Origin: Alphaproteobacteria bacterium
GTDB lineage: Bacteria; Pseudomonadota; Alphaproteobacteria; UBA8366; GCA-2717185
Assembly (NCBI GenBank): GCA_012103325.1
Contig: WLWY01000001.1
Location: 1,153,653 to 1,217,652 of the forward strand
DNA: 64,000 nucleotides
Reading direction: 5' to 3'
Shown here: piece by piece, positions 11,746 through 64,000 of the stretch
Layout: each line of letters starts with the position of its first letter
How positions within the stretch are numbered: the first letter of the stretch is position 1
The notes under the pieces: generated by a model
Seen by the model: only the letters and a program-made list of their open reading frames with translations
Told to the model about the DNA's origin: nothing
Database searches by the model: none
Position numbers and translations under genes: made by a program

Positions 11746-13524
11746 TCAGGATTCCGACTTTTCAGCCGCCTCGTCTTCCGCTTCGGACGCGTCGTCCGTT
11801 TCCGGCGTATCGTCCTCATCGGTATCTGTTTCCGACGCTTCTAGCTTAGATTGCAGTGCCGCGCCAAGAATATCGCCAAGCGATGCGCCGGAATCGGAGC
11901 TGCCATAATCCTTCATGGCCTGCTTCTCTTCCTCGATCTCCTTGGCCTTGATCGACAGGTTCAGCTTGCGGCCGGTCTTGTCGACCATCGTGACGCGTGC
12001 ATCGACCTTCTCTCCGACCGCGAAGCGGTCCGGACGCTGTTCGGAACGATCGCGCGACAGGTCCGCCTTGCGGATGAAGCCTGTCATCACGTCGTTCACC
12101 GTCACCTCGATGCCATTGTCGACAATCTTGGTAATGGTGCAGGTCACGATCGCGCCCTTCTTGATCGAGTCGACGCTGCCGGCGAACGGATCGTCCGTCA
12201 GCTGTTTGATGCCGAGGCTGATACGCTCTTTATCGACGTCGACTTCCAGGATCTTCGCCTTGACCATGTCGCCTTTCGTATAGGCCTGGATTGCTTCTTC
12301 ACCCTGCGACTGCCAGTCGATATCGGACATGTGGACCATGCCGTCGATATCGTTCGCCAGCCCGATAAAGATACCGAACTCGGTGATGTTCTTGACCTCG
12401 CCCTCGACAAGCGTGTCGACCGGGAACTTCTCGACGAAATCTTCCCACGGATTGGCCATCGTCTGTTTGAGACCGAGGCTGATCCGCCGCTTGTTCGGGT
12501 CGACGTCGAGGACCATCACGTCCACGGCCTGACTGGTCGACACGATCTTGCCCGGATGGACGTTCTTCTTGGTCCAGCTCATTTCCGAAACGTGCACCAG
12601 ACCTTCGACGCCGGGCTCGAGTTCCACGAACGCGCCGTAATCGGTGATATTCGTGACCCGTCCGGTAAACCGCGTGCCGATCGGATATTTCGCTTCGACG
12701 CCTTCCCATGGATCGGCTTCGAGCTGTTTCATGCCGAGGCTAATACGCTGGGTTTCCGGGTTGAAGCGGATCACCTGGACTTTCAGGGTCTGCCCGATCT
12801 GCAGCGCCTCGGTCGGGTGATTGATGCGCCGCCAAGCGATATCCGTGACGTGCAACAGGCCATCTACACCACCCAAATCGACAAACGCGCCGTAATCGGT
12901 GATATTCTTGACCACGCCCTCGAGCACCTGGCCTTCCTTCAAATTCGCGATCAGTTCGCCGCGCTGCTCCTGCCGGCTTTCCTCCAGGACGGCGCGGCGG
13001 GAAACCACGATATTGCCGCGGCTGCGGTCCATCTTGAGAATCTGGAAGGGCTGCGGCGTGCCGAGCAACGGCGCAATGTCCCGCACCGGGCGAATGTCGA
13101 CCTGGCTGCCCGGCAGAAATGCCACGGCGCCTGAAAGATCGACGGTGAACCCGCCCTTGACGCGGCCAAAAATCGTCCCGTTGACACGCTCATTGGCTTC
13201 GAATGCTTTTTCCAGCAAGCCCCAGGCTTCCTCGCGACGTGCCTTTTCGCGCGATAGCACCGCCTCGCCGTTCCGGTTTTCCATGCGTTCGAGATAGACA
13301 TCGACGATATCGCCAACCCGGATCTCTTCGCTCGCGTCGCCACCGGTGAATTCCCGAAGAGCGACCCGCCCTTCGGATTTCAGACCCGCATCGATGACGG
13401 CGAAATCGTTTTCGATGGCAATGATATTGCCCTTAACCACGGAGCCTTCGAGGCTGTCTTTATTGCCGAACGTTTCATTGAGAAGATCGGCGAAACTTTC
13501 TTTTACTGCGGCATCTGAAGCCAT
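11746..13524 (-). CDS. rpsA: 30S ribosomal protein S1
   Basis: Six S1-domain repeats. The start is placed at MASDAAVKESFADLLNE (ATG at 13524, preceded by AAGGA); the ORF track starts 10 codons upstream. Confidence 0.9.
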   Translation of the reverse strand: MASDAAVKESFADLLNETFGNKDSLEGSVVKGNIIAIENDFAVIDAGLKSEGRVALREFTGGDASEEIRVGDIVDVYLERMENRNGEAVLSREKARREEAWGLLEKAFEANERVNGTIFGRVKGGFTVDLSGAVAFLPGSQVDIRPVRDIAPLLGTPQPFQILKMDRSRGNIVVSRRAVLEESRQEQRGELIANLKEGQVLEGVVKNITDYGAFVDLGGVDGLLHVTDIAWRRINHPTEALQIGQTLKVQVIRFNPETQRISLGMKQLEADPWEGVEAKYPIGTRFTGRVTNITDYGAFVELEPGVEGLVHVSEMSWTKKNVHPGKIVSTSQAVDVMVLDVDPNKRRISLGLKQTMANPWEDFVEKFPVDTLVEGEVKNITEFGIFIGLANDIDGMVHMSDIDWQSQGEEAIQAYTKGDMVKAKILEVDVDKERISLGIKQLTDDPFAGSVDSIKKGAIVTCTITKIVDNGIEVTVNDVMTGFIRKADLSRDRSEQRPDRFAVGEKVDARVTMVDKTGRKLNLSIKAKEIEEEKQAMKDYGSSDSGASLGDILGAALQSKLEASETDTDEDDTPETDDASEAEDEAAEKSES

Positions 13525-16242: not shown

Positions 16243-16318
<76 letters not shown>

Positions 16319-16365: not shown

Positions 16366-16888
16366 AAGTCACCACAGAAGGCCGAAAACAGGCCCATTCC
16401 GCATCGATTTTCCTCCAGATCGAAAGGGCCAGCCACCCCCTCGGGGTCGCGGGAGCCTGTACTAATGCTAGTCTAACATCCAGCCCACTTGAAACCTGGA
16501 TACCATTCATACGCGCGTCCGTTACACTACCAAGGATGAACGACGACACCCCACCCGAGGAAGAGCCGCGCGTGCCGGCCAAGCCTGTCGGCATAAAATT
16601 CGTGCTGGCCTGCATAATTCTGGTCGTCTATGTCGGCTATCTTGTCTATGTCGGATTCAGCGACCCGCGCTAACGTAGAACTATCGATCGCTAGCTATCC
16701 TCGTCACGCTCGCCCGTCCCTCCCTGCGCGTGCGCGACGGCGTAACGAAAAGTCCGGTAACAAGCACCAGCCCCTACCAAAATATCCGCCGGCCTGGTTC
16801 ACCGGGCGCTCACCACCGTAATACACGTAGCGCTATTACACCGGGTCCCCTTAATTCCCTTTTATCCGGAATCCCTCCCCTTAATTCT

Positions 16889-16918
16889 CATACGAAAACG
16901 GCCGCGCAATGGCGGCCG
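16889..16918 (-). terminator. Rho-independent terminator of the PEP-CTERM gene
   Basis: On the minus sense strand, CGGCCGC-CATTGC-GCGGCCG is followed by a short U-run (GTTTTCGT); this is the weakest of the terminator calls. Confidence 0.55.
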
Positions 16919-16941
16919 TTCGCGTCGGGTTTAAATGTCGT

Positions 16942-17571
16942 CTAGGCGTCCTTTCGACGGCGGCGTGTCAGGGCTAAGCCACTTAAACCAATTCCGAAGA
17001 GTACAAGCGTGCCGGGTTCTGGAACCGCGCGGCCATTTGAAGCCTCGATAGTCGCCGTGGACTGGTTGGTGTCGATCGTACTAAAAACACTAGACCCTAA
17101 GTCGCCATTCTCGAATTGAACCGAAAACACGGCGCCAGCCTGACCGACAACGCCTCCAGGCGCGGGGTCGCTGATCAGGAAATCCGTATCAGCGGAGAAA
17201 CGCATCGAATCGCCGACGCCGAACGAGCCTGCCGCGAAGTTGAAAGTGAGCACTTGTGGATGATCTGTATCCCCTCCTACGAAGATGCTCGTAATGAAAC
17301 CTATATCGCCCGCAATCAATCCGTTCAGTGCGCCAATTACTGGAGCATTCGGAGAGCCATCAAAATCGAAAAAGGCGTTTGCATCGTTCGTAATATCGAA
17401 AGTAGCCGACTGAATGAAGCCTGTACCGCTTGTGAAAGAAATGCCCCAAAAATCGTTGCCAGCGTCAGCACTGTCGGTTCCGGTAGCATCGGCGATAACC
17501 GTTGCGTTAGCATTATTCGCAAACACAAAGAAGCAGCAAGCTGCCAACGTAAACATAATTCGCTTGTACAT
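16942..17571 (-). CDS. PEP-CTERM sorting-domain protein (predicted exosortase substrate)
   Basis: Signal peptide MYKRIMFTLAACCFFVFANNANA. C-terminal VPEPGTLVLFGIGLSGLALTRRRRKDA gives a PEP motif, a transmembrane helix and an Arg-rich tail. The gene is low-GC. The start is taken at the internal Met; the ORF track extends to 17637. Confidence 0.75.
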   Translation of the reverse strand: MYKRIMFTLAACCFFVFANNANATVIADATGTDSADAGNDFWGISFTSGTGFIQSATFDITNDANAFFDFDGSPNAPVIGALNGLIAGDIGFITSIFVGGDTDHPQVLTFNFAAGSFGVGDSMRFSADTDFLISDPAPGGVVGQAGAVFSVQFENGDLGSSVFSTIDTNQSTATIEASNGRAVPEPGTLVLFGIGLSGLALTRRRRKDA

Positions 17572-18372
17572 ATGCTTCCTCTCCTGTCGGAATGCTTTAC
17601 AATATGTGCCTGAATTGGGCATCTCAGAGGTATTCATGCAAATCCCGGGCCATAGCTATAAATTTAATTAAGTTATTGATTTTCATACAAACATGGGATT
17701 TCCTGTCTCAAAATTCCTGAAGATTGGGGTAAAACCGTCGGAATTCTTTACGTTTTTGAGTTGGCTTGTTACCTGGGATATCGCATATCGTGGTGGAAGT
17801 GGAGTCAGGGATGTTCTGAGGCACTGACCGTTCCTCGCTGAGGCTGTCCCGGCGTTGTTAGTTGACGCCCGCTCTTCCCCCGATTCTGTTGCAGAACTCG
17901 GTAGCTCAGCCAAAAAGGGGCCTAACGCGAAACAATGATTCAAAGTCAACGGCAGTCTTGAATCAAACTTACGTATCATTGTCGTTTGGGGACCGATAAT
18001 TTCGGGCAAGTCCTATGAACAGATTTTTGCAACAGAATCCCCCCAGCATGCGAAATCCCGATATCTACGGGGACAAAGAGGCCGTTACCACTCTTCGGTT
18101 CAGGTGGTCGCGCGCTATTGCCCCACACATATCCAACGATTTTCAAATCCCGGATAGCGAATATCCGCTACACTGTCGAGCATGCGGGATAATCCTGATC
18201 AGATCGCAGATAGCCTAATAGAGCAACACGGTGTTGAAGGCGCCTTGGTGGCGGCGAGAGACGGGATAGCGACGGCGCATGCGAGCGAGGACAATTACAG
18301 ACTAAGTGTCTGGCGTGAAGTGACTCGCGCGTTAAGAGACAAGCGGGACGCTCTTCAGGAACCGTCGGAATC

Positions 18373-18429
18373 CTAGTGTCCTGATCGTGAAATTCAAAGG
18401 ATTGAATTTCGCGTGAATCATCACACTAG
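18373..18429. repeat. CTAGTG-bounded palindromic intergenic element, copy A (type 1)
   Basis: CTAGTGTCCTGATCGTGAAATTCAAAGGATTGAATTTCGCGTGAATCATCACACTAG; the internal hairpin is GAAATTCAA / TTGAATTTC. Related copies occur at 43694, 50575 and 59521. Confidence 0.7.
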
Positions 18430-18567
18430 TCACGTCCGCCTTATGCGAGATTAAGTCTGCTTTTTCTTGATCCCGGGAATGGTGGCCAATTTGCGAATTG
18501 GTGGCAGTTTCCGCGACTGCTAAAAGAAATCAAAGAACACGAATAATCCCAGGCACGGAGATTTTCG

Positions 18568-20214
18568 ATGACCGCACCAACGACCATATATTCGGCACGG
18601 CGGATTCTGACCATGAATCCGTCCAATCCCGAAGCCACCCATGTAGCCGTGCGGAGGGATCGCATCCTCGGCGCAGGCTCGCTGGAAGAGCTCGTCGGAT
18701 GGGGCGATTATACGTTGGATGACCGGTTTACGGACAAGGTGCTGATGCCCGGCCTCGTGGAAGGTCACAGCCATGCGACGGAAGGCTCGTTCTGGCGTTA
18801 TGTGTATTGCGGTTATTTCGACCGAACCGATCCCAGCGGCAAGACCTGGCCCGGCCTGCGCTCCGTCGACGCGGTTGTGGAACGCTTGCAGGAGAAGAAT
18901 GCCGAACTCGGAGAGGGGGAAGACCCGATTAGCGCATGGGGGCTCGATCCGATCTATTTCGGCGATGTCCTCGTCTCACGCGCTGATCTCGACCGCGTTT
19001 CGACAACCAAGCCGATAGGGATTCGCCAAGCGAGCGGCCATATCATGAGTGTCAATACCAAGGCCCTGGAACTGAGCGGCCTGTTGCGCACCGGTATCGA
19101 CCATCCGGGCGTACCGCTCGACACGGAAGGATTGCCAACCGGTGAAATGAAGGGGCCCGATGCGATGGAATTGGTTGCGGCCCATGTCGGCCTCGACCGC
19201 AAGGTTATGTCGGCGGATGAATGGGGATTCAGGCAATTTGGCCGACTTTGTGTCCGCCAAGGTGTCACGACGGCGGCCGACCTGGCCAATCCGCTGCCGA
19301 CGGACGCCGTCGAAATGATGCTGCGCGTCACCGGCGAAGCGGATTTCCCCGTGCGGATCATACCGTTGCGCAGATTTCAGGGCGTTACGCCGCGTGAACT
19401 TATCGAGCGATCGCGGGAACTCCGGGAGATGAGTACGGATATGCTGCGCTTAGGGCGTGTGAAGATTCACGCCGACGGGTCGATCCAAGGCTTTACGGCC
19501 CGCATCCGGTGGCCCGGCTATTACAATGGCGCGCCGAACGGACTTTGGTATGCAACGCCGGAACAGTTGCAGGAGATCTACGAGCTCGCATTGGAGCACG
19601 ATCTTCTGGTCCATACCCATACCAATGGCGACGAAGCCACGGAACTGATGCTCGATATGTTTGAGCGCGCTCTGCATAAGGTGCCGCGACCCGATCATCG
19701 CTTCACGCTCCAGCATTGCCAACTGGCGGATACGGCGCAGTTCCGTCGGATGAAGAAGCTCGGCGTTTGCGTCAATCTATTCTCCAACCACACCTATTAT
19801 TGGGGCGAGCAGCATTATGCGAAGACGGTTGGACCGGAACGGGCGCAACGCATGAATGCCTGCGCCACCGCGCTTCGGGAAGGGGTGCCCTTGGCGATTC
19901 ATTCCGATGCGCCGGTGACACCTTTGGGGCCGTTCTTCACCGCCTGGTGCGCGGTCAACAGGCTCACACCAAGTGGCCGCGTCCTCGGAGATGAGGAAAA
20001 GATCAGCGTTGCCGATGCGCTCCGCACGATCACCATTGGCGCGGCTTATACGATGAAGCTGGACCATGAGATCGGATCCATCGAGACCGGCAAACGCGCC
20101 GATTTCGCGGTGCTGGAAGACGACCCCACTGCGATCGAAGAGGCAGAACTAAAAGATGTCCGCATTTGGGGCGTTGTCCAGGGCGGCCGGGTCTTCTCGG
20201 CTGCTGATATTTAA
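18568..20214 (+). CDS. Amidohydrolase-3 family metal-dependent hydrolase
   Basis: 548 aa. HxH metal motif (PGLVEGHSHATEG), a distal HTHTNGD motif and a C-terminal Asp, all consistent with a TIM-barrel amidohydrolase. Confidence 0.8.
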   Translation: MTAPTTIYSARRILTMNPSNPEATHVAVRRDRILGAGSLEELVGWGDYTLDDRFTDKVLMPGLVEGHSHATEGSFWRYVYCGYFDRTDPSGKTWPGLRSVDAVVERLQEKNAELGEGEDPISAWGLDPIYFGDVLVSRADLDRVSTTKPIGIRQASGHIMSVNTKALELSGLLRTGIDHPGVPLDTEGLPTGEMKGPDAMELVAAHVGLDRKVMSADEWGFRQFGRLCVRQGVTTAADLANPLPTDAVEMMLRVTGEADFPVRIIPLRRFQGVTPRELIERSRELREMSTDMLRLGRVKIHADGSIQGFTARIRWPGYYNGAPNGLWYATPEQLQEIYELALEHDLLVHTHTNGDEATELMLDMFERALHKVPRPDHRFTLQHCQLADTAQFRRMKKLGVCVNLFSNHTYYWGEQHYAKTVGPERAQRMNACATALREGVPLAIHSDAPVTPLGPFFTAWCAVNRLTPSGRVLGDEEKISVADALRTITIGAAYTMKLDHEIGSIETGKRADFAVLEDDPTAIEEAELKDVRIWGVVQGGRVFSAADI

Positions 20215-44293: not shown

Positions 44294-45058
44294 ATGGCAC
44301 GCGTACAGGACAAGGTAGCAATCGTCACCGGCGCGGCGATGGGGCTCGGCGCCGCAATCGCGCTGCGGCTGGCGGAAGAAGGCGCCAAGCTCATGCTGGG
44401 CGACATCGACGCGGACGCGCTCGAGACCTCCGCCGCGAATGCAAAAGCCGCCGGGGCCGAGGTGGAAACCCTGGTCGGCGACGTGACAGAGGAAGGCCCC
44501 GCTGCGGCTTTGATCCAAGGCGCGCTCGACCGGTTCGGGCAGCTCGACATCCTGGTCAACAATGTCGGCGGCAGCCGCAATTCGAAGATCTGGGAGATGC
44601 CGGTCGAAGACTGGGACCACACGGTGAAGCTCAATCTGCGCGGCACCTTCCTGTGCACCCGTGCCGCGGTGCCGCATATGATGGAACGCAAAGCGGGCAA
44701 GATCATCTGCCTGTCCTCCGGTGCGCGCGAGGGCACGCCCTGGACCGCGTACTATCAGGGCGGCTCGGCCTACTCCGCCTGCAAGGCGGGCGTGCACGGC
44801 TTCATCCGCGACGTGGCGCTCGAACTGGCCGAATACAACATCAACGTCAACGCCGTCGGCCCCGGCCCGATCGACACCGAACGCGCCGGCGCGACGCTGC
44901 GCCAGATGAACGAAACCGTGGAATACAGCCCCAACCACATGACCCCGCTCGGCCGCCTCGGCCAACCAAAAGAGGTCGCCGACGCGGTCCTGTTCCTGGC
45001 CTCCGACGAAGCGTCGTACATCTCGGGACACACCCTGGCGGTGGCCGGCGGACGGTAA
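44294..45058 (+). CDS. SDR family oxidoreductase
   Basis: Cofactor motif TGAAMGLGAAIA, NNVG, and the catalytic region SSGAREGTPWTAYYQGGSAYSACKAG. Confidence 0.85.
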   Translation: MARVQDKVAIVTGAAMGLGAAIALRLAEEGAKLMLGDIDADALETSAANAKAAGAEVETLVGDVTEEGPAAALIQGALDRFGQLDILVNNVGGSRNSKIWEMPVEDWDHTVKLNLRGTFLCTRAAVPHMMERKAGKIICLSSGAREGTPWTAYYQGGSAYSACKAGVHGFIRDVALELAEYNINVNAVGPGPIDTERAGATLRQMNETVEYSPNHMTPLGRLGQPKEVADAVLFLASDEASYISGHTLAVAGGR

Positions 45059-45070
45059 CCGCGCGCCCGA

Positions 45071-45102
45071 CCCTGCAAATCTCGCAAGCAGGGTTGTTGT
45101 TT
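45071..45102 (+). terminator. Rho-independent terminator after the SDR gene (first of two)
   Basis: CCCTGC-...-GCAGGG followed by TTGTTGTTT. Confidence 0.55.
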
Positions 45103-45145
45103 AATCCCCCCTGATTTTGTATAAAAAGCCTATCAGCAAGATCTG

Positions 45146-45179
45146 CGCCCGCCCGGAAAACTCCGCGGCGGGCTTTTTC
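45146..45179 (+). terminator. Rho-independent terminator (second)
   Basis: GCCCGCCCGG-AAAACTC-CGCGGCGGGC followed by TTTTT. Confidence 0.7.
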
Positions 45180-45251
45180 GTGGCTCGCTCAAATTACGGT
45201 GGCGAACAGCGCACATCGTGATCCTAGCCGCGATCCATTCCTCACGTCCGT

Positions 45252-45570
45252 TGTTCTCCCCTCACCCCGCCCTGAATGCCTTTGTGGGCATCCAGCCCCA
45301 AGGAGAGGGAGAATCAGCGCGCCGATCTAGACCCTCTCCCCACGAAGACCTCTGCGAAATAGTGCCAATGACATCGTTTCACCCCCCATCCTATCCTTCC
45401 CCCACAAAGGGGGAAGGGATAACTCACAGAGATCAACAGGTTGTTCTCCTCCCCCTTGAGGGGGGAGGACTAAGGTGGGGGTGGACGGCGGCTCCCCCTG
45501 CTGTTTCGCAGAGGTCTCCCACGGGAGAGGGAGGGCCCCGCGGAGCGGGAGGGTGAGGGGAAAACATGTC
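45252..45570. repeat. GC-rich nested palindromic element, copy 2 (with additional outer inverted repeat)
   Basis: Core GTTTCACCCCCCATCCTATCCTTCCCCCACAAAGGGGGAAGGGATAA…TCTCCTCCCCCTTGAGGGGGGAGGACTAAGGTGGGGGTG is about 90% identical to copy 1. Outer inverted repeat TTCTCCCCTCACCCCGCC / GCGGGAGGGTGAGGGGAAAA. Confidence 0.7.
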
Positions 45571-45606
45571 TCCAAAACCTATCGACCTCATTAGAAGGAG
45601 CCCCCC

Positions 45607-47793
45607 ATGCCCCGATTGCCCGGCGTGCGAGATGTCACGCGTGTATCGACCGACGGCCTGCGCCTGCCCGCCCTGAACGCGCCCGCGCCCGATCCGACCG
45701 GGGCGGCGCTGCAGGAGGTCGGGCGGTCGCTGGGCGACTTCGGCGAGGCGCTCGACGATTTCGCCCGCAAGCGCAAACGGCTCAAGGAGGCGGACGAAAG
45801 ACTCAAGGCGCAGAAATTCGATGCCGACTTGGCCAAGGGACGCGCCGTTTCGCCGCCGGACGGTTTCTTCTTCGAAGACGCGGACGAGGATGGCGAGGGT
45901 GAGGCGCGCATCGGTGGCGCGGCCACCCCAAGCGCGGACAATCCGCCCCTGCTCTCCTTCGAGGAAGCGGGCGACGCTCACATAAAGCGAATTCAAAACC
46001 CCGAGCAGCAGGCGCGTCACCAAAAGATCTTCGATGGCCACAAGAAGTTCCGCCTTATCGACCGCGGCGTCGAAGACCAGAACATCGGCGCCGCCAATCT
46101 CGTGTTCCGCGTCGACGGCATCCTCGACCGGCACCGCGAAACCGTGTCCGCCAAACCGGACATGATCAAACTGTCGCTGGAGAAAGGACGCGGCGTCCTG
46201 CGCCAGAACAAAGACGATCTGGGCTGGTCCGACGAGACCCTGCGCGAGAAGGAGGCGGCCTTCGAGCGCAGCCTCGACGTGGCGCTGTTGCGCGGCCGCA
46301 TCGCCCGCGGCGAGACCGTACCGGTGCTGGACTTTCTCAAAGGCCCCGACGCCCGGACCCTGCTGGACGGAGACAGCATCGCCGGCCTGACCCGGGAGGC
46401 GGAAGCGCGCGAGGCCAGCGAGGTGACGGCGATCCTGAGCGATATGGATATCCATGGCGCGGCGACCGAGCGGGCCGGGACCGGCCTCGAAGGCCTGCCG
46501 GAGCGCGCGGCCGAGACCCTGCCGCCGGAACAGTTCGATGATTTCGAAGTGGCCCAGCGCCGGGCGCGGACCCTGTTCGACTTTGGACAGCAGCATGGCG
46601 CGTCCTCGCAATCGGAAATCGAGGCGGCGGCGAAAGCACTGCGTCCCGCCGAAGGCACGGGTGCGGCGGATCAGAAGACGTTCGAGGCGGTCACGGACAA
46701 GGCGCAGCGCATCATCGCCGAGCGTCACGCCGAGCGGGCGGTCACGCGGAGCCTGGCGGTACAGGAAAAGCGAGAGGTGCCAGAAGAGCTGCGCAAGGTG
46801 CTGCCGAAGGAAGAAGCGCGCACCATGGCGGCCGACCTGGACGCCCTGCCGGCACTGGCCCGCGCGCCAGAAATTCTGAAACTGAAGGAGAAGTACGGCA
46901 AGCATTTCGACGCGGTGTTGCCGCAGATGCGGACGGAGGGGCTCGACCCGGAAACCGCCGCCATTGCCGCCGTCGCCGACAATCCCAAGGCGCTTCAGAC
47001 CGTGCTGCAGGCCATGGGCGTGCCCTATGCGCAACTGACCGAAGGCAAGACGCCGGACGAGGTCGCCGATCTGCGCGCGGCCCTCGCGGTGGAGCGGGAC
47101 GTCCTGGAGCAGCAGGGCCGCCTCGACCCCGCCATCGAGGGCTTCGTCTATGAGAAGATCGCCCTGCGCGGTCTCGAGCAAAGCGGCAACACGCAGCTCG
47201 CTGTGAAACGCGCCATGAAAACCTTCGCGGGACCGGACGACGCGGTCGCTAGCGACGATTCGGTTTTTGGGGAAGTGGGTAATGACCTTCTAATCGAAGG
47301 AAATAGTAACGATGCGCAGACTGGCAGCTCAATCAGCCTCACATCGGCGCAGCCCTCTAATCAATTAGGTGCAGAGAATACACTTTCTCTGGACGCCGAT
47401 GAAGATGAACTTCTAGACCTTGCAGAACTAGACCCAGCTACCATTCGTGCGCTCAGCAATCTTCGCGCACTCCTCAGGCAGAATAGAAGCAAAGGCGTTT
47501 CCAGCCAGAAATCGGGTTTAAAGTTCGTTGAGAAAAATTGGGATCCCGTAAATATAATCCCATGGCCGAAGGCTTTTATGCATCATTACAAGAAGCATGC
47601 ACCGCCGGGAATGTCACCTGTCGAGTATACTCAAAGAGCAATAAAATCATGGAAAACACGGCTTGAACCGGGATCAAACATCACAAAATCAACAGACGCG
47701 CTCGGGCGACGAGCGATCATGGTAGAAACATCAACAGGTGTAGGTCTTTATACGCCAAGCGGGAGAGCAATATGGTTCAGACCAAAAAAATGA
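45607..47793 (+). CDS. Large Ala/Glu-rich hypothetical protein with an AT-rich C-terminal module (candidate polymorphic toxin)
   Basis: 728 aa with no domain I recognise. The first ~1.67 kb is high-GC; from about 47280 the coding sequence becomes strongly AT-rich. The C-terminal ~170 aa reads FVEKNWDPVNIIPWPKAFMHHYKKHAPPGMSPVEYTQRAIKSW…GRAIWFRPKK. Confidence 0.6.
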   Translation: MPRLPGVRDVTRVSTDGLRLPALNAPAPDPTGAALQEVGRSLGDFGEALDDFARKRKRLKEADERLKAQKFDADLAKGRAVSPPDGFFFEDADEDGEGEARIGGAATPSADNPPLLSFEEAGDAHIKRIQNPEQQARHQKIFDGHKKFRLIDRGVEDQNIGAANLVFRVDGILDRHRETVSAKPDMIKLSLEKGRGVLRQNKDDLGWSDETLREKEAAFERSLDVALLRGRIARGETVPVLDFLKGPDARTLLDGDSIAGLTREAEAREASEVTAILSDMDIHGAATERAGTGLEGLPERAAETLPPEQFDDFEVAQRRARTLFDFGQQHGASSQSEIEAAAKALRPAEGTGAADQKTFEAVTDKAQRIIAERHAERAVTRSLAVQEKREVPEELRKVLPKEEARTMAADLDALPALARAPEILKLKEKYGKHFDAVLPQMRTEGLDPETAAIAAVADNPKALQTVLQAMGVPYAQLTEGKTPDEVADLRAALAVERDVLEQQGRLDPAIEGFVYEKIALRGLEQSGNTQLAVKRAMKTFAGPDDAVASDDSVFGEVGNDLLIEGNSNDAQTGSSISLTSAQPSNQLGAENTLSLDADEDELLDLAELDPATIRALSNLRALLRQNRSKGVSSQKSGLKFVEKNWDPVNIIPWPKAFMHHYKKHAPPGMSPVEYTQRAIKSWKTRLEPGSNITKSTDALGRRAIMVETSTGVGLYTPSGRAIWFRPKK

Positions 47794-48134
47794 AGCTATT
47801 GGAAAACAGGTTAGAAATCATCCGTAACCAAACGTTACCCATTTTTGATTACGAAAATGATAGAGATATATTCGATGCTATCTGCCAAATCTTTACGGAT
47901 GAGAGTGGCTTTGCTGGGATAGCGTACAGGCTGGTTGACAACCCATCTGCAACAATTTCGGATGAAGAAAGAAAAGCAGTTATAGATCCGGTATTCTCAA
48001 CGCCCGGAAAGTTACTTGGTAGAAGTGGCGAGGAAATTGATCTGAGAAGTGCGCCGGAGGTAGTAAAATATGCTGAAAATATGGACGAACTCAGAAAAGC
48101 AATTATAGAAGTAAGCAAAGATAAGGAGACATAA
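47790..48134 (+). CDS. Small low-GC ORF overlapping the end of the upstream gene (candidate immunity protein)
   Basis: Its ATG overlaps the upstream stop (ATGA); the ORF track starts at 47772. 115 aa, acidic, low-GC like the upstream C-terminal module. No recognisable family. Confidence 0.45.
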   Translation: MKLLENRLEIIRNQTLPIFDYENDRDIFDAICQIFTDESGFAGIAYRLVDNPSATISDEERKAVIDPVFSTPGKLLGRSGEEIDLRSAPEVVKYAENMDELRKAIIEVSKDKET

Positions 48135-48189
48135 TGAGCTAACCCGGGTTTGATGGACAGTTTAATTGAGCACGATTGCTCCGTTCTTC

Positions 48190-48345
48190 GTATGCGGCCG
48201 GACTTATGCATTGGGAAATACCGGGAAATACGGTGACGGAAATACGGTGACAGTGCACTTTACTAAAGCAAGGTGCGTGAGCTGACAGAAATCACGTATG
48301 CCCCCTCTCGCCGAACAGATTAAGTGCACTGTCACCGTAAATTAA
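48190..48345. repeat. Iteron-like direct repeats and inverted repeat in a non-coding spacer
   Basis: GGGAAATACCGGGAAATACGGTGACGGAAATACGGTGAC (three GAAATAC units). Inverted repeat CGGTGACAGTGCAC … GTGCACTGTCACCG. TTAAGTGCAC occurs twice. Confidence 0.55.
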
Positions 48346-48478
48346 GTGCACGGAGCTTTAAGGGTCAGGTCTTGCAATCCTACATTAGTTTACGAGCAGG
48401 TCCCTTTATTCACTCTCGGTAAGTACAGTGTCGCAGTAAGTTGAGCGACGCATATCGACGAAAAGACACCACCGCCCC

Positions 48479-50194
48479 CTACCCCACCGCCCTTGCCCCA
48501 CGCACCAGCCGCCCTGGTAGCCCTCCCGTCTCCACCCCGCCGATCTGCACCGGCGTGCCCGAGACGATCGTCGCGTCGTAGCCGTCGACCTTCTGGACCA
48601 GCCGGCGGCCGCCGCTCGGCAGGTCGTGGACCACGTGCGGGGCGTGCAGGCGCAGGCGGTCGTAATCGATCACGTTGATGTCGGCCTTGTAGCCGGGGCG
48701 CAGCAGGCCGCGGTCGTTGAGGCCGATGGCGGCGGCGTTGTCGTGGCTCAGCCGCCGGATCGCCCAGGGCAGCGGCGCTTTCGGCCCGCGCGTGCGGTCG
48801 CGCGTCCAGTGGGTCAGCATGTAGGTCATCGCGCTGGCGTCAGAGAGGATGCTGACATGCGCGCCGCCGTCGCCCAGCCCGACCAACGAATTCGGATGGC
48901 TGAGCATGTCCCTGACCGTGCCGAGGTCGCCATAGCTGTAGTTGCTCAAGGGGCGGTACAGGATCGTCTTGCCACCATTTTCCAGCAGCATGTCGTAGGC
49001 GAGACCGGCGGGATCGATGCCGGCGCGCGCGGCCATCGCGGCGATGCTCTGTTCCGGTGCCGGTTCGTAGTCCGGCGGGTCGCCGAGGGGGAAAATCCGC
49101 GCCCAGTTCGACACGCGGTTGGCCAGCCGCTCGTCGGGGTTGCTCTCCGCCATCAACTGCCGGCGGAAGTCGGGCTGGCGCAGCGCCGCGAGCTTTTCGG
49201 CGAACGGCAGGCCGGCGATCTTCTCCCAGCTCGGCCGGTTGACGAACGGGTTTTGGGAGATTTCGAAACCGAGATTGATGCCCGTCGCGCGGGTCAGCAC
49301 CTGACCGAAGATGCGCAGCCCCTCGGCATTGGCGCCGGCGATGCGCGCCATCAGATCGCGCCACGCTTCGGGCCTCGTGTCGCGCTGCAGGATGGTGATC
49401 GTCATCGGCCGGCCCGACGCCTGCACGATGCGGCGCAGCATATCGAACTCGGCTTCCTGATCGTCGAAGTCGGAAATCACCTGCATCCAGCCGGACCCCG
49501 TCTCACCCACCGCCGCCCCGATTTCGATCAGCTCGTCGGCTTCGGCCTTCAGGGTTGGCGTGTGTTCGCCCGCCAGCGTCTTGTGGTTGATCGTGCGCGA
49601 GGTGGAAAAGCCGAGCGCGCCGCTGCGGATGCCGGCCGCCGCGATCCGCGCCATCGCCGCGCGGTCTTCTGCATTCGCCGGCTCGTGCGCCAGGGCGCGT
49701 TCGCCCATCACATAGGTGCGGACGGCGGCATGCGGCACTTGCGTCACGATATCGAGGTCGTAGCGGCGGGCGCCGAGCGCGCCCAGAAAGTCGTCGAAGC
49801 TCTCCCAGTTCCACGGCAGGCCTTCGGTCAGCACGACTTCGGGAATGTCTTCCACGCCTTCCATCAGCTTCACCAACATATCGCGCTGTTCCGGCCGGCA
49901 GGGCGCGAAGCCGACGCCGCAATTGCCGACCATGACCGTGGTCACCCCGTTCCAGGACGAGGGCGTGATGCGGTTCGACCAGGTCGCCTGCGCGTCGTAA
50001 TGTGTGTGCACGTCGACGAAGCCCGGCGTCACCAGCTTGCCGCGCGCGTCGATCTCCTGCGCGCCCTTCGGCAGATTGGCGCCGACCGCAGCGATCCGAC
50101 CATCCGCCACCGCAACATCGGCCTCTACCGGGTCGCCGCCCGATCCGTCCAGGACGGTCCCGCCGCGAATGACCAGCGATGCGTCTTGCGTCAT
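48479..50194 (-). CDS. N-acyl-D-amino-acid deacylase (D-aminoacylase) family amidohydrolase
   Basis: [19 protein letters not shown]…[12 protein letters not shown] (HxH metal motif). The ORF track extends to 50293. Confidence 0.8.
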
Positions 50195-61625: not shown

Positions 61626-63137
61626 TCAGGTTTGAGCGTAACGCCAGGGGAGCAGTTCGTCGATCCGATTGATTTTATGGTCGGCGATACAGGCTAGCGT
61701 GTCGGTTAGCCAGGCCTGCGGATCGACGCCATTGAGTTTTGCTGTCTCGATCAGCGTATAGGCGATGGCGGCTGATTTGCCGCCGGCCTCGGACCCCATG
61801 AAGAGATAATTCTTCCGCCCCAGGGCGATGGGCCGCATGGATCGCTCTGCGGTATTGTTGTCGAGTTCAAGAAAGCCGTGATCTAGATATGGTCGCAGCT
61901 TCTTCATGCGGGTCAGGGCGTAGCGAATAGCACCGGCTAAGGGTGATTTGCCGGATATCCGGGTCAATTGGGCATGCAGCCATGATTCCAGGTCGTCGAA
62001 GATTGGTTTTGATTGGCGCTGCCTGATCTTCACCCGTTGATCCGGCGATTGGCCCCGAACCTCCTTCTCGACGCCATAGAGTGTGGCGATACGTTTTATG
62101 GCTTCCTCGGCAATCGCCGATCCCTGAGCTTTGTGGATATCGACGAACTTGCGTCGGATATGGGCCATGCAGGCCACTTCCGTCACCTTGCCCGTGCGGT
62201 ACAGGTCATTGAACCCCGCATAGCCATCGGCATGCATGAAGCCCGTGAAGTCCGCTAGATGTTCGCGCGGGCGAACGCCCTTCCTGTCGGACGAGAACTG
62301 ATACCATGCGGCAGGATGCGCCTCTCCGGCCCAGGGTCGTTCATCGCGGACATAGGCCCAAAGCCGCGCGGTCCTGGTTTTACCGGAGCCTGGGGTCAGC
62401 ATTTTTACCGGCGTATCATCGGCGAAGAGGGCCTGTCCCTTTAAAACATGGCGCGCGACGGCGTCCGCCAAAGGTTCCAACAGAGCCGTGGATTTGCCAA
62501 CCCAATCGGCCAGGGTGGAGCGGTCCAGATCGATCCCCTCGCGCTGGAATATCTGACTTTGCCGGTACAAAGGCGAATGATCGGCGTACTTGTTGACCAG
62601 CACATGGGCCAGTAGGCCAGGACCGGGCCGCCCGTGCTCAATCGGCCGCGACGGCAGGGCTGCCTGATGGAACGTCTCACAGCAGGTGCAGGCCATGCGC
62701 GGGCGAACAATCCGGTTCACGACAAAACGTCCGGGGACATATTCCAGTTCCTCGGTGACATCGTCGCCAAGCGTTTTGAGCGCACCGCCGCATTCCCCAC
62801 AGGCATCGCCCGGCGACAGTGTTGTCTCGTTGCGTGGGAGATGACCGGGCAGCGGTTTACGTTTGGGCTTGTCTTTTGGCGCTGCAGATTGATCTGCATT
62901 TGCATCGTCTGACGCGGGCTCCTGCGCGGACGCCGCAATCTCTTCGTCTTCCAGCGTCAACGCCAGTTGATCCAGAGCCTCCGAGCGCGACCCGAAGCGA
63001 TGCTGGCGCATCCCGGCCAATTGGTGTTGGAGCTTCTCGATCAACACCGCCTGTGACTTCACTTCCGACGCCAGCGATGCCACCAGACCTTTTAATGCGG
63101 CAGGTTCATTCGGGAGGTTCTCAGCGTCGTCGAGCAT
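61626..63137 (-). CDS. tnpC: IS66 family transposase (TnpC)
   Basis: 503 aa with a leucine zipper, a CxxC…C-x-C zinc motif (CGECGG…CTCCETF) and a DDE region. Confidence 0.9.
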
Positions 63138-63209
63138 GCCGGCAATCTATCAGCCGCCACCCCGCATGGGAATCCCCGGAAATTGACAACCCTTTGCTGT
63201 GAAACGACT

Positions 63210-63557
63210 TTACCCAGCCGTCAGGGGACGCCACGTTCGTTGTGGTATGCGCCAATCAATCCCTTCCAGCAGCATCGCCAATTGAGCCGGGGTCAGCGCA
63301 ACCTTGCCCGCTTTCGCAGACGGCCAGACAAACCGTCCCTTCTCCAGACGCTTCGAGAACAGACATGCCCCTTGCCCGTCCCACCAGATCACCTTGATCA
63401 GATCGCCACGGCGACCCCGGAAGACGAACAGATGACCGCAATACGGCGCCGCCTTTAGAACCTTCTCTGTTTGCGCTGACAGCCCATTGAACCCCTTACG
63501 CATGTCCGTCACGCCGGCCGCAAGCCAAACCTTCGTGTTCGTGGGAACCGGGATCAT
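63210..63557 (-). CDS. tnpB: IS66 family accessory protein TnpB (Orf2)
   Basis: [29 protein letters not shown] is the conserved IS66 Orf2 N-terminus. Confidence 0.9.
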
Positions 63558-63931
63558 CCCGACAAGCACCGGAGCAGACGTACGAGCGCTTCGGGATCGT
63601 AAGGGCCGCTAATGCTCAAGCGATGACCTCCGGCAAGCGTGACCTCGATCTTGCCTTCGTCACCAACAGGGCGCTCGGCTTCGTGCTCGACGTGACGCGC
63701 AATCTCAACCGGCAGGAAACAGGCGGCGTCATCGACCGTGTCACTTCCCGCAAACCGGGGATCTTTCAGCCAGTTGAAAACCTGATTGGCGTTCACATTG
63801 TAGCGCCGTGCAACCTGTGAAACCGAAACGCCCGCAAACCGCGTCTGTGCGCAAATCATCCGCTTCTCGTCTGCACTCCAGCGCCGACGCTTGCCCCGCT
63901 TCGCCACATCCTGATCCCCGTTAGTGTCCAC
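63554..63931 (-). CDS. tnpA: IS66 family TnpA (Orf1), helix-turn-helix protein
   Basis: [41 protein letters not shown] is an IS3/IS66-type helix-turn-helix. Confidence 0.85.
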
Positions 63932-64000
63932 CTAAACAAGTGGACACTAAACCTCACTTCTTCTGCACGGCAGAGCGGTCAGGCCGGACGCTTACAAACT

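Follow-up and report, generated by a model that had tools for sequence, protein, structure and literature searches.

A probable polymorphic toxin–immunity cassette on a podovirus internal virion protein homologue in uncultured Alphaproteobacteria

Here we describe a two-gene locus of an uncultured alphaproteobacterium (assembly GCA_012103325.1), which lies within a 64-kb stretch of contig WLWY01000001.1 (64,000 nucleotides (nt), forward strand, positions 1,153,653 to 1,217,652; hereafter the window, whose own numbering is used throughout). One open frame at 45607..47793 on the plus strand encodes a protein of 728 amino acids (aa), composed of a carrier body, a linker and a toxin tip, and a small open reading frame (ORF) overlaps its end. 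We read the locus as a polymorphic toxin with its immunity gene, borne on a carrier that derives from a phage protein and delivered by phage-type particles, and we hold this reading, taken as a whole, to be moderately probable. Its first component, that the two genes form a toxin–immunity cassette, is very likely, judging from sequence comparison across many carriers.

Results

An exhaustive HMMER/phmmer search with the 728-aa protein against 1.84 billion representatives returned 93 matches, which fell into two separate classes, one confined to the tip and the other to the body. About 36 proteins match query residues ~621-728 only, with 31-49% identity (36-45% in A2, a trimmed alignment of 30 tips). 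The match always lies at or near the C-terminus of the matched protein, and the total lengths of these proteins range from 62 to 2316 aa. As assigned by Pfam, carriers of the same tip include Rhs-repeat proteins (P0028, P0029, P0043, P0061 and P0022, with RHS repeats, DUF6531 and RHS core among their domains), eCIS_core proteins (PF13699; P0019 and P0059) and a PT-HINT protein (P0017). In P0061, DUF6531 and the RHS core are present together with a DPLGL motif directly before the tip. A word-indexed protein search gave two homologues of the full protein only and none of the tip. As a separate observation within the tip family, P0051 (149 aa) has a transposase-like N-terminus followed by a C-terminal piece of the toxin domain, which points to a toxin gene that an insertion sequence has broken up.

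The tip is accompanied by a small downstream ORF, the candidate immunity gene, at 47772..48134 on the plus strand. It begins at an ATG at 47772, preceded by a Shine-Dalgarno-like GGGAGAG at 47757-47763, encodes 120 aa (MVQTKKM...) and overlaps the toxin ORF by 22 nt; a second ATG lies within the ATGA at 47790. We compared the loci of other carriers, namely L014 (Rhs protein P0061), L015 (eCIS-core protein P0019) and L016/L017 (Rhs protein P0029). In all four a partner ORF of 114-117 aa starts 19-22 nt before the toxin stop, and it aligns with the window ORF over its full length at 26-30% identity (BLASTP E 6e-13, 7e-10 and 5e-11). Pvc16 and sheath genes adjoin the pair in L015, which is an eCIS locus. 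Since all these homologues open with MV at a point 19-22 nt ahead of the toxin stop, the real start of the window gene is 47772. The ATGA overlap at 47790-47793, on which the original prediction had based a 115-aa ORF, does exist; the start that it placed there is ruled out by the homologues. A word-indexed search with the small ORF returned the identical sequence only. The same prediction had taken the overall arrangement for that of a polymorphic toxin and its immunity gene, and this is borne out by a tip that is C-terminal on Rhs, PT-HINT and eCIS_core proteins as well and by a partner ORF that follows it in four of four other loci. Judged from these comparisons, toxin and partner are one two-gene cassette that moves across three unrelated carriers. 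We infer that the 120-aa protein protects against the tip, neutralising it by binding.

The exchange of the tip is visible in a second genomic copy, L020 (WLWD01001396.1, 10001-12896), which belongs to the same assembly as the contig of P0002, a paralogue described below. DNA identity between L020 and the window is 94% over 45551-46733 and 82% over 46719-47237, and nothing is shared beyond. The original prediction had looked for support to orthologues in which the body is conserved and both tip and downstream gene vary, and L020 is such a case: it keeps the body, has an unrelated, low-GC tip (…IRPMQNTIKRDF…VFTLDHRRLIAHRLAG…), and has an unrelated ORF of 91 aa, belonging to DUF7660, which begins at the stop of the tip. 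The partner ORF thus co-varies with the tip. DUF7660 may be an uncharacterised immunity family; a literature search for it found nothing.

The point at which the two copies part is also a break in base composition. The carrier body (aa 1-~545, 45607..47240, plus strand) is GC-rich, and the GC content, measured per 200 nt, is 0.62-0.73 until ~47200 and 0.40-0.53 from there until ~48400. GC at third codon positions (GC3) falls from 0.8-0.97 to 0.27-0.5 across codons 541-556 (nt 47227-47272), where the homology with L020 stops (47237). The abrupt passage from a GC-rich body to an AT-rich end, noted at the outset, was thereby confirmed, and 47201-48400 is the lowest-GC 1.2 kb of the whole window (GC 0.462, against a window median of 0.614). 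The low-GC segment of ~47240-48400 was horizontally acquired, and it encodes the linker, the toxin domain and the 120-aa protein. That this stretch is only a low-complexity linker is ruled out, as two conserved protein families are encoded there. The C-terminal module had been put at ~170 aa, which proved too long: the conserved domain covers ~106 aa (623-728; 47473..47790, plus strand) and stands behind a low-GC junction and linker of ~75 aa (aa ~546-622; 47241..47472, plus strand).

Two short motifs lie at the edges of this segment. At the junction, at aa ~559-575 (~47281-47331), the protein contains DDSVFGEVGNDLLIEG, which resembles an RTX nonapeptide (DDxxxGGxGxDxL) and which may be a demarcation or recombination motif, by analogy with VENN or DPxGL. 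A similar motif was also observed at the same body/tip boundary position in P0001 and L020. On the other side, at 48355..48384 on the plus strand, the motif AGCTT..GGGTCAGGTCTTGCAATCCTACA recurs behind the unrelated cassette of L020; in both copies (window 48355-48384 and L020 12955-12984) it reads AGCTT..GGGTCAG[GA]TCTTGCAATC[CA]TACA, with 21 of 23 positions identical in its 23-nt part at 48362-48384, where 0 matches are expected by chance. It may form the right-hand boundary of the exchangeable segment; alternatively, it may be a regulatory or terminator element.

In order to characterise the tip itself, we examined its conservation and its predicted structure. Across the 30 tips of A2 the residues W, D, H, Q, G, T, G and I are invariant, and K, S, Y, H, Y, T, D, G and R are nearly so. 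The window tip keeps W645, D646, K655, H660, H664, Y674-T675-Q676, D697, G700-R701, G713, T716, G719 and I722-W723-F724; judged from the alignment, H660, H664, K655, T675, Q676 and R701 are among the invariant or near-invariant residues of the family. The toxin family, ~100 aa long, can be described by the motifs WD, YH..KH, YTQ, GR and GLFT..G.IIWF, and a literature search on these strings found nothing. A single-sequence AlphaFold2 model of the last 168 aa was poor, with a predicted local distance difference test score (pLDDT) of 46. With the 30-sequence alignment, AlphaFold2 predicted three helices followed by a four-strand meander at pLDDT 88 and a predicted template-modelling score (pTM) of 0.78. 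The BECR fold is defined by an N-terminal helical segment and a four-strand meander (PMC3482391), and the topology of the tip model fits this published definition. Foldseek, which the original prediction had suggested for the C-terminal module, gave as its top match 8ey4_A, the CdiA-CT of E. coli O32:H37 (probability 0.99, E 0.025), followed by other BECR-fold RNase toxins. The toxins compared were CdiA-CT 8ey4, CdiA-CT Kp342 (6cp9), NC101 (5i4q), BrnT (3u97) and colicin D (1tfk/5znm); structure-based alignments of the tip with BECR toxins reach only 9-15% identity, and a search of PDB sequences gave no match. A literature search on 8EY4 yielded nothing relevant. We consider the tip to be probably, rather than demonstrably, a BECR-like RNase, because the scores are modest and the structure is a predicted one.

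The second class of phmmer matches concerns the carrier body. It comprises ~50 proteins of 650-890 aa, which match query residues 1-~560; the match to P0048, for instance, has an E value of 2.3e-08 over residues 1-551. When the alignment of the chromosomal clade to which the window protein belongs (A10) was compared with that of the phage-borne members (A9), hhalign reported 99.9% probability and E 7.6e-36 over 530 columns, spanning residues 1-552 and 1-577, respectively, with the N-terminal motif M-P-x-[LI]-P included. The N-terminus of the body is conserved as MPRLPGVRDVTRVS.DGLRLPALNAPAPDPTGAAL. One member, P0060, matches proteins of two annotated phages, ORF14 of the Pseudomonas podovirus Ab31 (annotated as 'structural lysozyme') and gp46 of the Pelagibacter podovirus HTVC100P. 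In both phages the gene lies downstream of the portal, protease/scaffold, capsid and tail tubular A/B genes, with 'internal virion protein B' (gp14-like) on one side of it and other internal virion proteins and the tail fibre on the other. P0048 and P0012 stand in the same kind of structural module on metagenomic contigs (L012 and L010), 42 viral contigs of IMG/VR carry the canonical family, and P0065 contains an insert of an SLT lytic transglycosylase.

The internal virion proteins gp14-16 of T7 are packed in the phage head and ejected into the host. From gene position and annotation we infer that proteins of the Ab31 ORF14/HTVC100P gp46 family are likewise present in the virion and ejected. 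Residues 1-~545 of the window protein are almost certainly a chromosomal, stand-alone homologue of a T7-like podovirus internal virion protein. This identity of the delivery region goes beyond the original prediction, which recognised no known trafficking domain in the 728-aa protein; our Pfam, NCBIfam, PHROG and PDB sequence searches likewise found no known secretion or trafficking domain. The canonical C-terminal domain of the family (G.WVTN..G.GL.LMVPF..GG.LPL), present in 36 of 46 aligned members, is absent from the window protein. A weak Col-Pyo DNase match in P0052 (residues 112-170) was considered as a second toxin fusion and rejected, since it scored 16.8 bits where the cut-off is 27.

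Phage tail fibres and their assembly genes likewise combine a conserved N-terminus with a C-terminus that is variable and low in GC and with a small ORF downstream. The locus could accordingly encode no toxin at all and instead a receptor-binding protein with an exchangeable specificity tip, followed by an assembly chaperone. We regard this as highly improbable: the body is homologous to internal virion proteins, and the phage modules that encode these have another gene for the tail fibre or spike. Moreover, Rhs, PT-HINT and eCIS-core proteins bear the tip as well, and its model shows a small BECR-like domain of the alpha+beta kind and not a fibre.

The closest relatives of the window protein form a clade on bacterial chromosomes, which comprises P0001, P0002, P0005, P0011, P0013 and several fragments. 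Its N-terminus is strongly conserved (MPRLPGV.DVTRVS..GLRLPAL.AP..DPTGAAL), and a scan of genome contigs found this clade-specific N-terminus in two metagenome-assembled genomes only. The first 35 aa hardly differ between paralogues whose overall identity is 30%, although the DNA encoding them is only 77% identical. A drop of GC3 in the last 180-400 codons is found in all four other genes of the chromosomal clade and in none of the phage-borne genes. The tips differ among the clade members, save for one type common to P0002 and P0011, in which we noted the motif ...IDGLRR.T...I..S.... We also observed AT-rich downstream spacers (GC 0.32-0.48) at the clade loci L001, L004, L007 and L011. P0002 (812 aa, 30% identical) is found behind an intact T7-type portal gene (PF12236, E 3.7e-106), a 113-aa gene and a protease-like gene. 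Positions 1-905 of L021 correspond to window 63082-63995 at 99% identity, which places this cluster (L021/L001) ~9 kb past the end of the window; the cluster could be partial and phage-derived, or a remnant.

Several of our results weigh against delivery by particles, and most of them would suit another history of the locus. In that history a T7-like prophage has decayed until only this gene was left, and mobile, selfish toxin–immunity cassettes land at the 3' end of the gene. The pair would act only inside the cell, in addiction or abortive infection, or would persist as a silent reservoir of tips, and nothing would be delivered. Consistent with this, no other phage structural gene is present in the 64-kb window, where tblastn with the complete module of L012 found only this gene, and three other clade genes, P0001 (L004), P0005 (L007) and P0011 (L011), have housekeeping genes on their flanks and no neighbouring phage structural genes. 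The portal cluster beside P0002, the only phage-like neighbourhood known in the clade, has no capsid or tail genes. Signs of decay are also present. In L020 a TAG interrupts the frame at codon 309 and a frameshift follows near 11950, which may reflect decay of this copy or an error of assembly. From the window protein a stretch of ~21 aa with the motif DPAxYxxxDPxVA... is missing behind aa 375 (AERHA|ERAV, nt 46726-46735); L020, P0001, P0002, P0005 and P0011 and the phage-borne members all have it. Among the viral contigs of IMG/VR we found neither a copy of the toxin domain nor the clade-specific N-terminus. Against our reading as a whole it also counts that searches of Pfam, NCBIfam, PHROGs and PDB sequences with the 728-aa protein, its tip and the small ORF gave no match, and specifically no curated toxin family (Ntox, Tox or CdiA-CT). 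Family by family, none covers the tip in Pfam (~16 family members scanned) or NCBIfam (30 aligned tips), as the original prediction had stated of named toxin families, and none in these two databases covers the small ORF.

We nevertheless consider a mere relic rather unlikely. The reading frame runs uninterrupted through 728 codons behind a good Shine-Dalgarno sequence. Compared with L020 the body has a dN/dS of 0.14, and therefore it is under purifying selection. Homologues that are only 30-43% identical keep full-length ORFs in at least five genomic contexts, and the first 35 aa are conserved in the protein and not in the DNA. In addition, a 620-aa carrier would be needless for a toxin that acts purely within the cell.

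The absence of phage machinery from the neighbourhood would also agree with a toxin that is secreted by a non-phage route, its body having been co-opted for some other export, such as type I secretion or colicin-like release by lysis. The DDxxxGGxGxDxL-like motif at the body/tip junction of the window protein, P0001 and L020 points in the same direction. However, this motif amounts to about two repeats only, and Pfam detects neither HemolysinCabind nor any other secretion domain. No type I secretion genes were found in the immediate neighbourhood and no lysis gene was recognised in the cassette. Export of this kind is in our estimation quite improbable.

The flanks of the locus contain further elements. 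The leader at 45551..45606 (plus strand), with the Shine-Dalgarno sequence AGAAGGAG at 45591-45598, is conserved in L020. Further upstream, at 45084..45183 (plus strand), the two copies share a segment with a hairpin (GCGCCCGCCCGG..CCGCGGCGGGC) and a T-run behind it (blastn 89% to L020 9615-9713), which we take, from this identity, as the left border of the duplicated gene unit. Between these lies a nested palindrome at 45252..45566, without strand, with inverted-repeat arms of 16, 31 and 37 nt and a DNA fold of -83.9 kcal/mol (z -6.2). L020 has a different REP-like sequence at this position, and the palindrome is probably an intergenic element of the repetitive extragenic palindromic or miniature inverted-repeat transposable (REP/MITE) type and not part of the system. 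The spacer behind the immunity gene has two 14-nt tandem repeats (GGAAATACGGTGAC) at 48224-48251 and a perfect 18-nt inverted repeat, 61 nt apart, at 48243-48260 and 48322-48339; the RNA fold of 48224-48339 has a z of -2.3. Repeats on both sides of the locus had been described from the outset and do occur there. Neither set counts as a demonstrated part of the cassette, and the idea that they bracket it as a mobile unit was found unsupported and set aside, as the exchanged segment does not include the palindrome upstream, in whose place L020 has another sequence.

The genes that flank the 728-aa ORF encode a short-chain dehydrogenase/reductase (SDR) and an amidohydrolase. An Rfam scan of 44900-48700 revealed nothing credible, and tRNA genes are distant from the locus. 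Elsewhere in the window we noted a second low-GC island at 16600-18800 (GC 0.48-0.52), which adjoins a tRNA-Ala gene (16243-16318) and contains a gene for a 231-aa PEP-CTERM-type protein at 16942-17637 on the minus strand.

Discussion

The nearest described system is that of the MuF toxins of temperate phages, for which the predicted route is packing in the phage head and transfer together with the DNA (Jamet et al. 2017, PMC5576092; Zhang et al. 2012, PMC3482391). In both, the N-terminal part is a carrier associated with the phage head, the toxin at the C-terminus varies, and an immunity gene follows. In contrast to MuF toxins, the window protein has no MuF/SPP1 gp7 domain (PF04233; Pfam negative at E<=1), its carrier is a homologue of a podovirus internal virion (ejection) protein, it lies outside any recognisable prophage, and the hosts are uncultured Alphaproteobacteria. 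Rhs and eCIS-core effectors (P0061, P0029 and P0019) share with it the toxin domain (36-45% identity) and the immunity family with its 19-22 nt overlap, but they have an Rhs shell or eCIS_core, tied to type VI secretion (T6SS)/Tc-like or contractile injection systems, and the window protein has neither. The phage proteins Ab31 ORF14 and HTVC100P gp46, which would functionally correspond to T7 gp15/gp16 and some of whose relatives carry an SLT domain, share the ~530-column homology and the M-P-x-[LI]-P motif, whereas the window gene stands alone in the chromosome and has the toxin domain in place of the canonical C-terminal domain. As for polymorphic toxin systems in the sense of Zhang et al. 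(2012), a tip shared by unrelated carriers, a downstream partner that co-varies with it and the exchange of tips are all present at the locus, but an N-terminal domain of a known secretion or trafficking route is absent. Type II toxin–antitoxin systems of the RelE/BrnT kind differ in that their toxin is small and stands alone; here it forms the end of a 728-aa protein and, elsewhere, of Rhs and eCIS proteins as long as 2316 aa. A literature search for polymorphic toxins together with internal virion proteins found nothing, and one for polymorphic toxins together with ejection proteins found MuF toxins and other phage systems and no podovirus internal virion carrier. The carrier, identified here by its sequence, would thus represent a class that we have not found described for polymorphic toxins in the literature searched, although the logic of MuF toxins is already known.

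On this basis we propose the following mechanism. The low-GC toxin–immunity segment stands where related phage proteins have their canonical C-terminal domain. By means of its conserved N-terminal region the protein would enter the head of a podovirus-type particle, whose genes would lie at another place in the genome, and it would be ejected into the target cell alongside the other core proteins. The tip would act as an RNase of the BECR fold, probably on tRNA or rRNA. Cells without immunity would be arrested by the RNase, and sister cells that have the immunity gene would survive, the 120-aa protein neutralising the tip by binding. Delivery by particles is the tentative part of this proposal, which by our own estimate stands somewhat below an even chance. 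More doubtful still is its extension to the whole chromosomal clade, which would then make up a new class of polymorphic toxins of uncultured Alphaproteobacteria, set apart by its trafficking, with exchangeable tips loaded into podovirus-type or gene transfer agent (GTA)-like particles whose genes are dispersed, and injected into competitors.

The carrier determines how a polymorphic toxin reaches its target, and it is by their carriers that polymorphic toxins are classified. The toxin domain (~100 aa) and its candidate immunity protein (~115 aa) form new families, both outside Pfam and NCBIfam, yet many metagenomes contain them in connection with Rhs and eCIS effectors. Should the carrier be only a relic, toxin–immunity cassettes would graft onto genes that have no part in secretion, which matters for the annotation of such cassettes. 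If it still enters phage-type particles, ejection proteins would tolerate a C-terminal cargo, which would be useful for engineering phage-based protein delivery, and the locus would be the second independent case, after MuF, of phage heads serving as devices for toxin delivery.

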